From: Elusimicrobiota bacterium
GTDB taxonomy: Bacteria > Elusimicrobiota > Elusimicrobia > FEN-1173
Assembly: GCA_016721625.1 (NCBI GenBank)
Contig: JADKHR010000001.1
Coordinates: 1,967,225-2,031,224 of the forward strand
Direction: 5' to 3'
DNA length: 64,000 nt
In this document: positions 14,733 to 49,331 of the stretch, piece by piece
Numbering within the stretch: position 1 is the first letter of the stretch
How the letters are laid out: every line of letters starts with the position of its first letter
The notes under the pieces: generated by a model
Database searches by the model: none
Told to the model about the DNA's origin: nothing
What the model saw: only the letters and a program-made list of their open reading frames with translations
Position numbers and translations under genes: made by a program

Positions 14733-14982
14733 TGGAATCCTCAGATTTCCCAATCGCCGGGGTCAAAATCGCTGGCCAAGCCATGACAAAGAACCTGCGC
14801 CGTCAGCATCAGCAGATACCCGCACTACTTTTTCTGCAAATTAAACCGCGATGGGCGGCCTTGACCGAAGATTTGAATAAAACGGTCACCCGTTTTAGTT
14901 CGGCCAAACGCAGAACCCGAGTCGTTGTTCGCTCTCTTGGCAGGGAAGAGTCTGTTTTGCATTCGACCAATGGACAAATCCC

Positions 14983-17068
14983 ATGAAGACAAGCGTGACC
15001 ACCGAACGGTCGGATGACCTCACGGCCAAGAACAACAATAACCACCTTCCAGAACAACCGAAAACAATTGTGTTCGTCGAGACGCTTGATTTGAGGACGT
15101 TGTTTTATCTCATTCTTCATAAGGATCAAATTGAAAGGGTTTATGTGTTTAGGGCATCTCGTTGGAAAGGTTTGAATAATTTTCTTCATTTTATTCGTCT
15201 GTTGAAGACGGTGCCTGTCCCAATCCGAATATATTTGGCCGATGTTAGGGATGCGGAGGGTCGATGCATTTATCCAAGTGTTTTTAGCGACGCGAGCGGG
15301 CTCTCGGAAGTGGTTCGCCAAACAGAATTCGATAAAAATGAAATGGTGGAAAGAGCCTGCCTATTGATGGGGAATCGTCAAGCCGTAATGCTTTTTTTAG
15401 AAAAATTAATTTATCAGGACATTTTTGAAGTCCTTTCAAAGGCGCACATGGCCAAATGGTATTTCACAAACGTCCTTCAATTTCCGCGGGCCCGATGCGT
15501 TTTGTTGGTGCCAAACCGGTTGTGGTGGAGCCATGTCTCCGGTTATACAACGTCGGTGGGTGTCCATTTAATTAGGGTCGGTAGCGCCGATCATCGGTCG
15601 ATATGGCCCTTCATTTCCCTAAGGTTGGTGCGGGGGCTTGCTCATGGAATGCGGGAAGGCCTTCGAGCGGTTTTCAAGGCTTCGGGCCGCCCGGGTTCCT
15701 CACCAAAAATTATTGAATCACCCACCCAACAAACCAAGATAGCAACCGATTATCTTGGGACGCCGGTATCTTTTGATGAGAAAAAAAGATCCACGTTTCT
15801 TTGGATGATCAACTCAGGACTTCAAGAGGAGCGGGTCTCTCTGTTTCGGTCTGATCAAACCTTTTCAATGAGTGACGAAGAACTGATGTTGCTTAAAAAT
15901 AAGAGAATTCAGCTAATAAACTTGTCCAAAGAAGCCAACGTAAAAAGCGCTATTCGCGTTTTATTGGACCGTGGGGTATGGGTGCTGTTGATGGAATTGA
16001 TTCGGGGTGTTTTCACGGGGGGGTATAAAAAGTTTCGGACCAATGTATTCTGCTTTGAAATGTTGTTACGCTATTCGATTTATTTCACTTTTTGGCGCAA
16101 TCTTTTTCAACGCTACGGGATAAGAATGCTCATGACCTCCTCTTATTTCGACCCCTTCCATATTCCTAAACATTGCGCCGTCAAATCGAACAAAGGAATT
16201 AGCCTGTCGTACCAATGGTCAAATCTTGAAATTAATGTAAAAACGATCAGTATTTGTTGCGATATGTATTTTGGGTTTTCTGAAATGTATAAAAGAACTT
16301 TATATGAAAATGGTTCCCTCATGGGTGCTTTCCTTCCAACAGGGTATATTACCGACTACGGCATTAAAAGCGTTAAAGAGAATGCCGCAAAATTGAGAAG
16401 CACTCTAACCAAAAACGGAGCCAATTTCATTCTTTGTTTTTGATGAAAATTCTTCGGATGCTTTGTACAGTATTATCCCTCATCAACAAACTGTTTCTGT
16501 GTACAGGGGCTTTCTTGAGAGATTGATGAAGGATCCTACGCTTGGGATTATTTTCAAACCCAGTTACCCCCATACGATTTACCAGCGCTTGTCGCCGATT
16601 TCCGGTTTGCTGGAAGCGGCTAAAAAGACCGGGAGGTGCGCTTTCATCGATGAGGGAAAGTTTAAAAGCGATAAACTTCCTACGGAAATTGCCCAAGCTT
16701 CGGATGTCGCCGTCGGTCTTCTCCTCAGCGGTACGGCGGCGCTTGAGTCCTCGTTGTCGGGGGCCAAGACCGTGTTTCTGAACCTCGAAAAAGTTTCTTC
16801 CATTGGACTCGGTCCAGCGGACATTGGGAATGTCGTTTTTAATAGTTTAGAGGAATTGTTTTTGGCGACGGACCTTTATCGAAATGGGGGAACCGACCGG
16901 GAGAAATTCGGAAACCTCTCCCATTGGGTCGGGATGAGGGATACCCATCGGGACGGTCGGGCGACCTTTAGAATGGGGCGATTCATCAACGCGCTGTTGA
17001 TGGGATTGGACCGCGGGGAAGATCCAGACACCGTCCTCGAACGGTTAAAACAAGAGGTCGCATGTTGA
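14983..17068 (+). CDS. large hypothetical protein (~690 aa with one frame change near 16440), possible capsule/nonulosonate glycosyltransferase
   Basis: ORFs 14983-16443 and 16463-17068 join if one base is restored in the T-run at ~16435-16445 (...KNGANFILCF / FVFDENSSDALYSIIPHQ...); low-GC; C-terminal part has a Rossmann-like GT-B flavour (...DVAVGLLLSGTAALESSLSGAKTVFLN...); function not established. Confidence 0.45.
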
Positions 17069-17137
17069 CCGATATGGCCGTCCCGCGCTCGGGCGGATGC
17101 TCTCGGGTCCCCGTGAGCGGCGCCCCCGGGGTCGACC

Positions 17138-47143: not shown

Positions 47144-48052
47144 GTGCGACTCTTGATCACGGGCAGTCGAGGGTATTTGGGATCTCGCCTTCTGGATTAT
47201 CTTCGGGCGCAGGATCCTCGCGCCTCGATCCTGGGAGTTTCCCGCCATTCCAGGCGCCAAGGGGAGTTGGCTTGCCAATTTGACAACGCCCTTTCTGTTA
47301 GGAAAACCCTTGTTTCCAACCGGCCGGATATTGTTTTCCATTGCGTTGGAACAACCCTGCCGGGGCCGTGGGAAGCGCTCGTTCGAGCGCACCTTCTTTC
47401 GACCATAAACGTGTTGGAGGCGGTGCGCGCCTTCCCGGGGAAGAAGCCCCGGGTGGTGATCATCGGGTCCGCCGCGGAATACGGAGCTGGGAAGCCGGGG
47501 GCGCGTTTTTCCGAGAAGGACACTCCCCGCCCGGAAACACCCTACGGTCTTTCCAAATACCTCCAAACCTCGTTGGCCATGGCCTATGCCAGGCTCGGGG
47601 TTCCGGTCGTAGCGGCGCGGTTGTTCAATTTGTTGGTGCCGGACGCTCCTCCTGCCTTTGCGGTTTCCCGCGTCATCGGTTTGCTTCGAGGGATTCCTCG
47701 GGGAGCTTCTTGTCATTTAAAAGTCGGGCCGATGAACGCGATCCGGGATTTCCTTCCCCTGGAAGAGGTGTTCCGGGCCCTGTATCTTTTGGGGAGGGAT
47801 GGAAAGCCGGGTGAAATTTATAACGTGTGTTCGGGTCAAGGGACCCGCATGGGAGATCTTTTTGATGCCCTGGCTGACGCGGCGGGGGTTCGCGTTGATT
47901 GGGGGATGGAGGGAAAAGGGTCCCAACGGTTCCACGCTTCCATCTCTGTCGGCAATGGGGCCAAGATCCGCCGCCACACCGGTTGGTTTCCGAAATCAAG
48001 CTTCTCAACTGCCGTGAAAACGTTGGTCCGCCCAATGGGAAAGAATAGGTGA
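47144..48052 (+). CDS. NAD-dependent epimerase/dehydratase or NDP-sugar reductase (SDR family)
   Basis: GTG start; ...RLLITGSRGYLGS... and ...TPYGLSKYL... motifs. Confidence 0.7.
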   Translation: MRLLITGSRGYLGSRLLDYLRAQDPRASILGVSRHSRRQGELACQFDNALSVRKTLVSNRPDIVFHCVGTTLPGPWEALVRAHLLSTINVLEAVRAFPGKKPRVVIIGSAAEYGAGKPGARFSEKDTPRPETPYGLSKYLQTSLAMAYARLGVPVVAARLFNLLVPDAPPAFAVSRVIGLLRGIPRGASCHLKVGPMNAIRDFLPLEEVFRALYLLGRDGKPGEIYNVCSGQGTRMGDLFDALADAAGVRVDWGMEGKGSQRFHASISVGNGAKIRRHTGWFPKSSFSTAVKTLVRPMGKNR

Positions 48053-48227
48053 CGGCCCCTCTGGTAAAAAAATGCGGCTCGGAATCTTTTATCCTTGGGC
48101 CCTCGAGTGAGTGGGGAAATGATGATCTGGGACCGACCCACCGCGTTCTCTTTGGGTTCGGGGGGTCGGTTTCCGAGGACCTATTCGATCGCAGAGCGAT
48201 CTTACGGAGACCGTTTTCGGAATCTGC

Positions 48228-49331
48228 GTGATGGGAAAAAAAATCCGAGTCCTCCATGTTACGGTGGGATTGAACATCGGCGGAACGGAAAAACTTCTTT
48301 CGAGATTGGCGGCCGCAATAAATCCCGAACGCTTTGATGTCTCGGTCCTCTGTCTGAAATCCTGGGGGATCGAAGCCGAATATTTGCGGCAACACGGCCT
48401 TCGTGTGTTTGCTCTGGAGGGGAGGGGGTGGTGGGATGTTCGTCTGGGATTCAGGCTCTTCAGATTTTTTCGTCATCACTCGTTCGAGGTCGTCCACTCT
48501 CATTTAGCCATCGCGAATGTGGTCGCGGCGATTTTTAAAAGCAAGGGTCGGTTGGTTTGGCATATCCATGAGATGGGCGAGGGAACCTCTTGGCTTTTTC
48601 GAAAGGCGGAAAGGTGTCTGGGGGCGCGGGCGGATGTGGTTTTGGCCGTCTCAAAAGCGGTGGCACGGGCCTTCTCTTCTCGGACGGGTAGGGAGGATTC
48701 GAGAGTGCGGGTCTTCCCAAACGCGATTCCGTCCGAGAAAAAAGGGAACCCACTCAAAGAAAAACTTCCCGTCCCTTGGCCCGAACCCCGCCAGGTCATT
48801 GGTTTTGTTGGGCGGCTGGACGACGAGATCAAGGGGATTCGTGTTCTTCTTCAGGCGGCGAAGCGGGTCGTTCAAAAAGCACCCACGGCGAGGTTTTTAA
48901 TTGTGGGGGATGGCCCCGATCGCCAGGTGCTGGAAAAAACTTCGGAAACATTAGGGTTGAAAGATTTTGTTTCCTTTACGGGTGAAATTCCAAACGCGGC
49001 CGGCCATTTCTCTGAGTTCGATCTCTTCGTTCTCCCCTCCCGGTTTGAAGGTTTCGGAATCGGTTTGCTAGAGGCCATGTGGGCCGGGTGCCCCGTGGTG
49101 GCCACAAGAACCGGAGGCATCCCGGAAGTCATCCTAGACGGCGAGACGGGTTTGTTGGTTCCCCCGGAAGACCCCAAGGCTCTTGCCGACGCCCTTCTTC
49201 TATTGCTGACGGATCCGGAAAAGCGGAGCGCCATGGGGCGGAAGGCTTCTTCCCACATTGAAACCCATTTCCGGTGGGAAAAGTTTGTCGAAGATACAGA
49301 ATCAATTTACGAGAATTCGTTTGTTCCATAA
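48228..49331 (+). CDS. glycosyltransferase family 4
   Basis: ...RVLHVTVGLNIGGTEKLL... N-terminus and ...LPSRFEGFGIGLLEAMWAGCPVVATRTGGIPEVI... donor-binding signature. Confidence 0.8.
   Translation: MMGKKIRVLHVTVGLNIGGTEKLLSRLAAAINPERFDVSVLCLKSWGIEAEYLRQHGLRVFALEGRGWWDVRLGFRLFRFFRHHSFEVVHSHLAIANVVAAIFKSKGRLVWHIHEMGEGTSWLFRKAERCLGARADVVLAVSKAVARAFSSRTGREDSRVRVFPNAIPSEKKGNPLKEKLPVPWPEPRQVIGFVGRLDDEIKGIRVLLQAAKRVVQKAPTARFLIVGDGPDRQVLEKTSETLGLKDFVSFTGEIPNAAGHFSEFDLFVLPSRFEGFGIGLLEAMWAGCPVVATRTGGIPEVILDGETGLLVPPEDPKALADALLLLLTDPEKRSAMGRKASSHIETHFRWEKFVEDTESIYENSFVP

Follow-up and report, generated by a model that had tools for sequence, protein, structure and literature searches.

Does the long run of glycan genes in this Elusimicrobia genome encode one richly decorated nonulosonic acid pathway, and are its genes, several of which are interrupted in the given sequence, functional? 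The stretch of DNA analysed here (64,000 nucleotides, hereafter the window) comes from an uncultivated member of the group, and its glycan gene island occupies 14,983-49,331 (~34 kb), with all genes on the + strand. Every long + strand open reading frame (ORF) of the island was scanned with Pfam and NCBIfam. Once split ORFs were merged, 28 genes and one methyltransferase remnant were counted, which agrees with the approximately 30 co-directional genes given in the initial annotation. The locus is a surface-glycan cluster of the well-known nonulosonic acid class. It had been described as a single decorated pathway built on pseudaminic acid (Pse); the Pse pathway was indeed found, but two nonulosonate modules were present rather than one. 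We call them block A (30,965-45,417), which contains the Pse genes, and block B (14,983-30,881 and 45,414-48,052), which contains twin NeuB genes. We consider it fairly probable that the island is a chromosomal surface-glycan locus made of these two blocks, and that its broken reading frames are assembly errors.

The Pse genes of block A were identified using equivalog models. As in the Pse pathway of Campylobacter jejuni and Helicobacter pylori, PseB, PseC, PseG, and PseI passed the cutoffs, the last two after a 1-nt repair, and a GNAT and a CTP_transf_3 protein were available for the PseH and PseF steps. Before repair, PseG scored 139 bits against the TIGR03590 cutoff of 153.55 and covered only model positions 56-279, and PseI scored 329 bits against the TIGR03586 cutoff of 340 and covered positions 2-220, with its SAF domain in another frame. 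After repair, the scores were 180.6 bits (positions 4-279) and 474 bits (positions 2-327), respectively. Each of these two enzymes counts as present only if its frameshift is an artefact. In the repaired PseG, a GNAT domain occupied residues 361-492, and a 504-aa orthologue in L082, one of the contigs L081-L093 that served as comparison loci bearing homologues of window genes, showed the same architecture. As regards the pseG/pseH fusion proposed in the initial annotation, PseG and a GNAT were thus located in one ORF, whereas the PseH equivalog level was not reached (24.6 bits against a cutoff of 93). The assignments of NeuB, PseB, PseC, and PseG were supported by Pfam and NCBIfam. Hidden Markov models also supported two CTP_transf_3 proteins, two methyltransferases, a GNAT, Aminotran_3, Aldo_ket_red, Wzx, two GT2 and two GT4 glycosyltransferases, the radical SAM-SPASM and B12-binding radical SAM enzymes, and the MBOAT protein. 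The putative PP-loop amidotransferase-like enzyme was recovered as a 641-aa protein with a weak Asn_synthase match.

Block A differs from the C. jejuni and H. pylori pathway in that PseG and the GNAT form one polypeptide, no Maf or flagellin gene is nearby in the window, Wzx and several glycosyltransferases point to a lipid-linked glycan, and an aldo/keto reductase (AKR), a class-III aminotransferase, and a B12-binding radical SAM enzyme are interleaved with the pathway genes. The second cytidylyltransferase, whose likely start is at ~34030, had orthologues of 37-45% identity in L081-L086; the Pse module contains no other candidate for CMP activation. The class-III aminotransferase matched glutamate-1-semialdehyde aminomutase and aminoglycoside C-6' aminotransferases in the PDB, and its orthologues in L081, L083, L085, and L086 were 48-53% identical. 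The B12-binding radical SAM enzyme matched PF04055 and, below the gathering threshold, PF02310 (23 bits), and contained a CPYKCTFC motif (CxxxCxxC) at residue 245; it scored 140 bits for the KedN5 subfamily against a cutoff of 700. Its nearest PDB entries were TokK (7kdx, E 3e-33) and CysS (9n1b). With these closest solved relatives it shares the B12-binding domain and CxxxCxxC, and it differs from them in its low identity and in its context, nonulosonate biosynthesis, for which no such enzyme was found in the literature. Between the aminotransferase and this enzyme lies the methyltransferase remnant at 36221-36571, which reads VLEIGCGTARL...K-stop-VGVDNSDVAL with an in-frame TAG and frame changes.

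The tailoring genes, regarded as unusual in the initial annotation, recur elsewhere. Homologues of the B12 radical SAM enzyme with at least 41% identity were examined in seven loci, of which six are independent (L081, L082, L083/L084, L085, L086, and L088), and a NeuB gene was adjacent in all seven. The L081-L086 loci also hold CTP_transf_3, AKR, and class-III aminotransferase genes; in L088, only NeuB is visible beside the radical SAM gene and the contig ends there. The gene order in L082 is PseB-like, DegT, AKR, B12 radical SAM, cytidylyltransferase, aminotransferase, PseG-GNAT, and NeuB/SAF. In L081, a metagenomic contig, a single 675-aa protein (10795-12822) combines the cytidylyltransferase with the class-III aminotransferase, which argues that the two share a substrate. 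A homologue with 32% identity lies in a nonribosomal peptide synthetase locus and marks the boundary of the family; at 50% clustering, only a handful of representatives aligned end to end.

A similar set has been described in the Legionella pneumophila Sg6/Sg12 O-antigen cluster, where Lp6_762-772 include a GNAT, PseG, a glutamate-1-semialdehyde-aminomutase-like aminotransferase, an acylneuraminate cytidylyltransferase, an aryl-alcohol-dehydrogenase-like oxidoreductase, DegT, and CapD (PMC3694923). This gene set corresponds to block A, as compared by the annotation table of that paper and not by sequence (PMC3694923). No radical SAM gene is mentioned there (PMC3694923), HisH/HisF amidotransferase genes are present there and absent from the window, and export is by an ATP-binding cassette transporter (Wzm/Wzt) instead of Wzx. 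Therefore, given this cultured Legionella (PMC3694923) and the comparison contigs, the tailoring trio is recurrent.

A speculative reading, which we consider less likely than not, is that the AKR, the cytidylyltransferase resembling PDB 6oew, the class-III aminotransferase, and the TokK-like B12 radical SAM enzyme form a conserved, undescribed route that may convert a Pse-type intermediate to a C-methylated and/or extra-aminated nonulosonic acid. Its substrate is possibly a CMP or nucleotide conjugate of that intermediate. Parallels would be GenK and GenB, whose substrate is gentamicin, and Fom3, whose substrate is cytidylyl-hydroxyethylphosphonate (cytidylyl-HEP); in the case of GenK, class-III C-6' aminotransferases also operate on the aminosugar. 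To our knowledge, no C-methylated or extra-aminated nonulosonic sugar class of this kind has been chemically reported, and a literature search found nothing on Pse with radical SAM or B12, or on Elusimicrobia with pseudaminic acid.

Block B is centred on the triplet of NeuB1, cytidylyltransferase 1 (CT1), and NeuB2. After repair, NeuB2 matched TIGR03569 end to end with 331 bits and NeuB1 reached 123 bits, against a cutoff of 400. NeuB2 shared 76% identity with its counterpart in contig L093, and NeuB1 shared 67% with L093 and 42% with L089/L090. NeuB1, NeuB2, and PseI all retain the DH[ST] and EKH motifs. The start of CT1 was set by its L093 orthologue (70% identity), and that of methyltransferase 2 (MT2) by a 229-aa L093 gene (74%). 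The radical SAM-SPASM enzyme matched the C-terminal half of the TIGR04321 spiro-SPASM model and was 53-54% identical to genes adjoining NeuB1 in L089/L090. The AsnB-like enzyme scored 59.7 bits for TIGR01536, below its cutoff, and lacks the N-terminal glutaminase Cys (N-terminus MRKMFIATG); its orthologues (34-68% identity) adjoin Wzx in L083, L085, L086, L088, and L093. The LegB-like dehydratase belongs with the left module; its L093 counterpart (64% identity) immediately precedes the ORF1 orthologue. A possible product of the triplet is a nonulosonate that is non-aminated or new in some other way.

The first gene of the island, ORF1, had no family in Pfam or NCBIfam even at relaxed thresholds. 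Full-length homologues were P0184 (47% identity, 677 aa) and P0185. An AlphaFold2 (AF2) model of P0184 had a pLDDT of 63 and matched UDP-GlcNAc 2-epimerases and GT-B transferases with TM-scores of 0.25-0.48; with low confidence, ORF1 is predicted to be GT-B-like in fold class only. Separately, a ~650-aa protein of family PF27878 ('PFTS_polysacc') was observed between the AsnB-like gene and Wzx in L083 (20104-22062), L085 (17395-19377), and L088 (4111-6006). The window contains no clear counterpart, ORF1 being only a marginal profile match. A relationship of ORF1 or the TIGR04326-like protein to PF27878 was not convincingly supported: a model built from the L083/L085/L088 neighbours gave a best reciprocal E of 2e-4 in a tiny database.

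The MBOAT gene is followed by a gene for a membrane-anchored partner. The repaired MBOAT protein scored 147 bits for TIGR04091 (DltB) against a cutoff of 375. The partner gave no match in Pfam or NCBIfam at relaxed thresholds or in a PDB sequence search. Among its 111 homologues, some matched PF07611 or SGNH, and the Ser81/Asp327/His330 triad was invariant in the family. The AF2 model had a pLDDT of 91.3; the best Foldseek matches were DltD structures (6pfx/7dxm/3bma, E 8e-4, TM ~0.39), followed by SGNH esterases. The triad and the fold matches together support the DltD-like label at the fold level. The MBOAT/DltD-like pair of the initial annotation was thus confirmed by model for the MBOAT part, whereas 'DltD-like' was borne out by fold and not by model. 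As in the DltB/DltD, PatA/PatB, and AlgI/AlgJ-AlgX pairs, an MBOAT protein adjoins a membrane-anchored SGNH-fold protein with a Ser-Asp-His triad. The pair differs from the Dlt system in that DltA, DltC, and DltX are absent, no AMP-binding or PP-binding gene is found in the island, both proteins fall below the DltB/DltD thresholds, and the partner has no DltD Pfam match. O-acetylation of the glycan is the default guess for its function.

Synteny showed that the two modules occur separately elsewhere. In L093, the order, with identity to the window, is LegB-like (64%), NTP-transferase (60%), ORF1 (47%), MT2 (74%), GT4 (68%), radical SAM (27%), GNAT (67%), AsnB-like (68%), Wzx (62%), NeuB1 (67%), CT1 (70%), and NeuB2 (76%). 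L089/L090 contain ORF1-like, TIGR04326-like, radical SAM-SPASM, NeuB1, CT1, and NeuB2 genes. Compared with L093, the Pse block of the window sits between NeuB2 and the LegB-like/NTP-transferase pair, methyltransferase 1 (MT1) and the MBOAT/SGNH pair have been gained, and the TIGR04326-like gene lies inside the Pse block. This rearrangement directly supports the earlier description of the island as mosaic. Upstream in the twin-NeuB cluster of L089, a 3-dehydroquinate-synthase/Fe-ADH-like gene (2685-3812) and a further CTP_transf_3, a short-chain dehydrogenase/reductase (SDR), and a methyltransferase gene were also observed, which are not in the window. The features of the island are listed in Table 1.

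Table 1. Features of the glycan gene island and GC content of the island and flanks by segment (positions in the window).
Feature	Position	Strand	Evidence or value
ORF1, ~695 aa	14983-17068	+	no Pfam/NCBIfam family; probable GT-B-like fold
Methyltransferase 1 (MT1; Methyltransf_24, TylF-like class)	17138-17902	+	PF13578 38 bits; no counterpart in L093
Methyltransferase 2 (MT2)	17968-18654	+	Methyltransf_11 21.3 bits vs cutoff 21.2, weak
Left GT4 glycosyltransferase	18772-19947	+	Glycos_transf_1 100 bits; 65-68% identity to L093 GT4
MBOAT membrane O-acyltransferase (DltB/AlgI-like)	20118-21371	+	Pfam MBOAT 93 bits on C-terminal part; absent from L093
SGNH-fold partner of MBOAT, N-terminally anchored	21582-22712	+	DltD-like fold; MBL0059165 (IPP35_08680)
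Radical SAM/SPASM enzyme	22875-23903	+	Pfam Radical_SAM and SPASM; CNLRCTMC motif
GNAT N-acetyltransferase	23973-24572	+	Acetyltransf_3 84 bits; 67% identity to L093 gene
AsnB-like adenylating/amidating enzyme, 641 aa	24577-26502	+	Asn_synthase 22.7 bits; MBL0059168 (IPP35_08695)
Wzx-type MOP flippase	26551-28053	+	Polysacc_synt and Polysacc_synt_3; at least 9 hydrophobic segments
NeuB1, very divergent NeuB-family synthase	28074-29077	+	ORF pieces match NeuB model 13-121 and 151-238
Cytidylyltransferase 1 (CT1, CTP_transf_3), between NeuB1 and NeuB2	29074-29811	+	Pfam 84 bits
NeuB2, NeuB/LegI-type synthase with SAF	29824-30881	+	NeuB 1-66 in 29824-30192; NeuB 80-238 and SAF in 30171-30881
PseB, inverting UDP-GlcNAc 4,6-dehydratase	30965-31978	+	TIGR03589 485.6 bits vs cutoff 407.75, full length
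PseC aminotransferase	31991-33133	+	TIGR03588 460.1 bits vs cutoff 423.5
Aldo/keto reductase (AKR)	33138-34016	+	Pfam Aldo_ket_red 103 bits; orthologues L081-L086
Cytidylyltransferase 2 (CTP_transf_3, SpsF/6oew-like)	33979-34803	+	Pfam 116 bits; PDB 6oew E 7e-38
Class-III (GSA-aminomutase-like) aminotransferase	34826-36136	+	Pfam Aminotran_3 134 bits; NCBI MBL0059179
SAM-dependent methyltransferase remnant, degraded	36221-36571	+	three-frame reading, in 660-nt gap
B12-binding radical SAM enzyme, predicted C-methyltransferase, 737 aa	36800-39013	+	NCBI MBL0059181
TIGR04326-like 'surface carbohydrate biosynthesis protein', ~590 aa	39025-40807	+	TIGR04326 55-57 bits, below cutoff
GT2 glycosyltransferase a	40820-41740	+	Pfam Glycos_transf_2 58 bits
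GT2 glycosyltransferase b	41762-42793	+	Pfam Glycos_transf_2 123 bits
PseG UDP-sugar hydrolase fused to C-terminal GNAT, 512 aa	42784-44321	+	TIGR03590
PseI pseudaminic acid synthase	44318-45417	+	TIGR03586
LegB-like NDP-sugar 4,6-dehydratase	45414-46391	+	TIGR04180 415 bits vs cutoff 475
Sugar-1-phosphate nucleotidyltransferase	46388-47137	+	NTP_transferase 126 bits; 60% identity to L093 gene
SDR epimerase/reductase	47144-48052	+	Pfam Epimerase 109 bits
Right GT4 glycosyltransferase, last island gene	48228-49331	+	Glyco_trans_1_4 155 bits and Glyco_transf_4; TIGR03088-like 180 bits, below cutoff
GC, island segment	14,983-22,712		0.448
GC, island segment	22,875-30,881		0.507
GC, island segment	30,965-45,417		0.538
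GC, island segment	45,414-49,331		0.568
GC, left flank	1-5,354		0.614
GC, right flank	49,540-64,000		0.604

Block B was also compared with described systems. Leptospira clusters with several synthases and CMP-synthetases have already been described (PMC3438082). The TIGR04326-like gene, the radical SAM-SPASM/CTP_transf_3 genes, and the LegB-like gene of the window matched NCBIfam families based on spirochaete loci (the TIGR04326 LIC13510 family, TIGR04321 spiro-SPASM, and TIGR04180 LegB), all below the cutoffs. LegC and LegG are present in the L. interrogans nonulosonic acid cluster (PMC3438082), whereas neither is in the window, and separate radical SAM-SPASM and CTP_transf_3 genes are found in place of the spiro-SPASM fusion. 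In relation to the legionaminic acid (Leg) pathway, the window has a LegB-like protein, an NTP_transferase, and the two sub-cutoff NeuB proteins, but lacks the LegC aminotransferase and the hydrolysing 2-epimerase LegG. The only DegT-family gene of the island is that of PseC, which scored higher on the PseC model than on the LegC model. No Epimerase_2 or NeuC-type domain was found by Pfam in any island ORF, the weak 2-epimerase-like fold of ORF1 being insufficient.

Subsequently, the breaks were mapped by tBLASTn between paralogues, three-frame reading, and orthologue-guided alignment. In the unrepaired sequence, ten 1-2-nt indels or stops interrupt eight island genes, namely ORF1, left GT4, MBOAT, NeuB1, NeuB2, TIGR04326-like, PseG, and PseI; none of the nonulosonate synthase genes is in frame, nor is pseG. 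In ORF1, a T-run at 16434-16438 is 2 nt short and splits the gene into two ORFs, the break being spanned by the homologue consensus CFFDENS. The left GT4 gene contains a +1/-1 pair at ~18822-18833 and 18858-18869, which puts its N-terminal 45 codons off frame in the DNA alignment. The MBOAT gene has an in-frame TAA (20715-20717) within a T5A4 run, reading WGF-stop-KVVVAD. Frameshifts were located in a G5 run at 28475-28479 (NeuB1), at A5G around ~30100-30105 (NeuB2), in a C4T4 run at 42975-42982 (PseG, the frame switch being revealed by the L082 orthologue), and at ~45022 (PseI). The TIGR04326-like gene has two, in a T-run at 39860-39864 and near a C5 run at ~40624-40628, and guide alignments with the L089 and L086 proteins passed through frames 1, 0, and 2. 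Full-length proteins were restored by altering one run by 1-2 nt per break. Orthologues in L082 and L093 were intact. Similar single frameshifts were found in two flank genes with flank-level GC, asnB (49506-49520), whose N-terminus MCGIVGLYSREQG is in another frame, and alr (52513-52526). The island had 0.29 events/kb and the right flank 0.14 events/kb, a difference that was not significant (P = 0.25). An event was regarded as well pinned when its position was fixed by conserved motifs or DNA alignment. Not all frameshifts lie in runs of at least 4 nt; the L093 DNA alignment placed the GT4 pair, and possibly the NeuB2 event, in shorter runs, and the enrichment was computed conservatively. Four of the eight well-pinned events were in runs of at least 4 nt, which make up 11% of the bases (P = 0.007).

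The source record is a metagenome-assembled genome (MAG) in a single contig of 2,758,065 bp, in which the locus tags of the locus run from IPP35_08650 onwards. Five window proteins are identical to NCBI proteins of this record, namely the B12 radical SAM enzyme, the class-III aminotransferase, the AsnB-like enzyme, and the SGNH protein, with the accessions given in Table 1, and a pyrophosphatase (MBL0059199). A megabase-scale single-contig MAG points to long-read assembly, and the IPP35 locus-tag series probably belongs to Nanopore-based activated-sludge MAGs. Homopolymer indels are a known residual error of Nanopore assemblies (PMC9262707). Since the MAG is of this single-contig type and such assemblies have this weakness, the breaks were read as homopolymer-length artefacts in functional genes, which we judge to be likely. 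Alternatively, the breaks could be real and the island a decaying, largely non-functional relic in which all synthase genes and pseG are pseudogenes. The ten disruptions across eight genes, the eroded methyltransferase remnant, the heavily broken genes in another low-GC patch and in the M4 protease gene upstream, and the NCBI entry of the ORF1 N-terminal piece as a separate 482-aa protein would fit such decay. We nevertheless regard it as unlikely, as the genes show no further decay beyond single breaks, the repaired proteins are full-length and above curated cutoffs with catalytic motifs kept, asnB and alr share the defect at flank-level GC, and the events are homopolymer-enriched 1-2-nt run-length changes at a rate not significantly different from the flank rate; one 2.76-Mb MAG contig is also typical of long-read assembly. 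Phase variation by slipped-strand changes, as in the Campylobacter flagellar glycosylation locus, appears very improbable. Genes for surface glycans are textbook examples of contingency loci, five of the six runs of at least 8 nt fall in the island, and a G9 tract in NeuB2 (30052-30060) is the longest run in the window. However, this tract is in frame as sequenced, the actual breaks are in 1-7-nt runs, too short for efficient slippage, some of them are +1/-1 pairs in 2-3-nt runs, and genes beyond the glycan island are hit too. The G9 tract itself encodes DGGGT and is possibly slippage-prone, or its assembled length may be unreliable. Under the assembly-error reading, the island carries a caution for long-read MAGs, namely that 1-2-nt run-length errors can make a whole pathway look pseudogenised or split genes look like extra ones.

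Two further alternatives concern the origin of the island and its acceptor. The guanine-plus-cytosine (GC) content on a 1-kb scale was 0.60-0.66 at 1-5, 10-14, and 50-56 kb, 0.42-0.52 at 15-28 kb, and 0.50-0.59 at 28-49 kb; the island mean was 0.514 and that of the flanks 0.611 (1-kb windows, Mann-Whitney p = 2e-9). Composition was thus clearly uneven, as had been noted from 60-nt samples, which are within local scatter; the ~62% given for 31.2 and 48.6 kb was not reproduced, the 1-kb value being 0.54-0.55 at both. Since the island mean is below that of the flanks, the whole island is depressed, in a gradient from 0.45 to 0.57, and not only a part of it as the initial annotation had it. The lowest-GC stretch is the MBOAT gene (0.41-0.42), and the MT1 and MBOAT/SGNH genes, which are absent from the syntenic L093, are at 0.41-0.46. 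These values would suit a recently acquired mobile genomic island, yet we hold this to be quite improbable. Low GC is common in glycan loci and by itself is no proof of recent transfer; L093, from a genome of similar GC, likewise dips at its cluster. No integrase or transposase domain was found in Pfam/NCBIfam scans of the window ORFs, a tRNA scan of the window found none at the island borders (the sole tRNA is at 57940), and a repeat search found no direct or inverted flanking repeats above chance. The other alternative is that the island is dedicated to protein glycosylation (pilin, flagellin, or S-layer) rather than being a polysaccharide or lipopolysaccharide locus, which we consider rather doubtful. 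Flagellins, pilins, and S-layers are the best-known carriers of Pse and Leg, prepilin-type genes (TIGR02532) lie 6-7 kb upstream, one of them at ~7.9 kb in a separate low-GC patch, and Wzy and Wzz were not found in the window. Nonulosonate-modified lipoproteins have also been reported (PMC3438082). On the other hand, no Maf/PF01973, FlmG-type, PglL, TfpO, PglB, flagellin, or S-layer gene was found in the window scans, block A has its nearest described relative in an O-antigen cluster (PMC3694923), and Wzx together with at least five glycosyltransferase-type proteins encoded by the island points to a lipid-linked oligosaccharide. As the initial annotation stated, an acceptor is not evident; none is encoded within the window.

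Under the preferred two-block reading, the following pathway is proposed. PseB would dehydrate UDP-GlcNAc and PseC would aminate C4; the PseG-fused GNAT would acetylate the product, PseG would remove UDP, and PseI would condense the resulting sugar with phosphoenolpyruvate. The 6oew-like CTP_transf_3 enzyme would activate the Pse-type acid with CMP. Judging by analogy, the AKR, the class-III aminotransferase, and the B12 radical SAM enzyme may further modify the sugar or its N-acyl group through redox, transamination, and C-methylation steps. Block B (NTP-transferase, LegB-like, SDR, GNAT, AsnB-like, radical SAM-SPASM, NeuB1-CT1-NeuB2, and the methyltransferases) would make a second nonulosonic acid, and the inserted MBOAT/SGNH pair may O-acylate the product outside the membrane. 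The GT2, GT4, ORF1, and TIGR04326-like proteins would assemble a lipid-linked glycan, which Wzx would flip, and the final acceptor would be encoded outside the window.

Several points weigh against this reading. ORF1, the TIGR04326-like and AsnB-like proteins, the tailoring trio, and both radical SAM enzymes are uncharacterised. With the PseH model TIGR03585 (cutoff 93.1), the PseG-fused GNAT scored 24.6 bits and the free GNAT (23973) 43.5 bits; with the PseF model TIGR03584 (cutoff 205.7), CT1 scored 20 bits and cytidylyltransferase 2 gave no match. For block B, the window encodes neither an aminotransferase nor a 2-epimerase/hydrolase; therefore, its product cannot be named. An initiating phosphoglycosyltransferase, Wzy, Wzz, a ligase, and an oligosaccharyltransferase were not found in the window, and no scanned window ORF matched Bac_transf, Glycos_transf_4, Wzy_C, Wzz, or Poly_export; such genes may be present in other parts of the genome. 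The artefact status of the indels is something we infer, and the methyltransferase remnant (36.2-36.6 kb), the M4 protease gene (12.4-13.95 kb), and the 5.4-10 kb patch are far more broken and may be true pseudogenes; the defects of the remnant are too dense for an average error rate.

Apart from the island, several features of the flanks were observed. The low-GC patch at 5400-10000 (GC 0.50-0.56), with heavily broken reading frames, contains fragmented FG-GAP-repeat ORFs at 6186-7794 and at least one prepilin-type N-terminal methylation domain, GFTLIEMVVAISLV, at ~7937-8002 (TIGR02532 29 bits, GspJ-like). At 10100-13957, an emfourin-like segment (Pfam below cutoff) is followed by a PLD/HKD-domain ORF (10443-11501, DrmC/NucT-like). 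An ORF at 10016-11125 was rejected as a real 369-aa gene, as the PLD-like ORF in another frame explains most of that stretch. The gene for a thermolysin-family M4 protease (~12386-13957) is interrupted by at least three frameshifts, of which one falls within the HEXXH motif. Further upstream, an RNase E/G homologue (2610-5354) has ~550 aa before its catalytic domain (residues 554-821 of 914). On the right, asnB (TIGR03108-like, 617 bits, below cutoff), a FemX-like FemAB gene, and alr occupy 49476-53506 at flank-level GC and may act in peptidoglycan modification. In a search of genome contigs for asnB homologues, the best matches listed were only ~50% identical and spread over many phyla. Scans for promoters and terminators gave no more than the shuffle expectation, and an Rfam scan found no riboswitch in the window.

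Bacterial surfaces are decorated with nonulosonic acids, which influence recognition by phages, predators, and hosts. We know of almost nothing on the cell surface of Elusimicrobiota. Taken by itself, the locus adds another variable glycan cluster to those known. The literature searched describes neither the regular presence of a B12 radical SAM enzyme in Pse-type clusters nor the conserved NeuB1-cytidylyltransferase-NeuB2 triplet; both are leads rather than findings, and the value of the locus lies in pointing to two recurrent uncharacterised sets, namely the AKR, cytidylyltransferase, class-III aminotransferase, and B12 radical SAM genes in Pse clusters and the twin-NeuB triplet.

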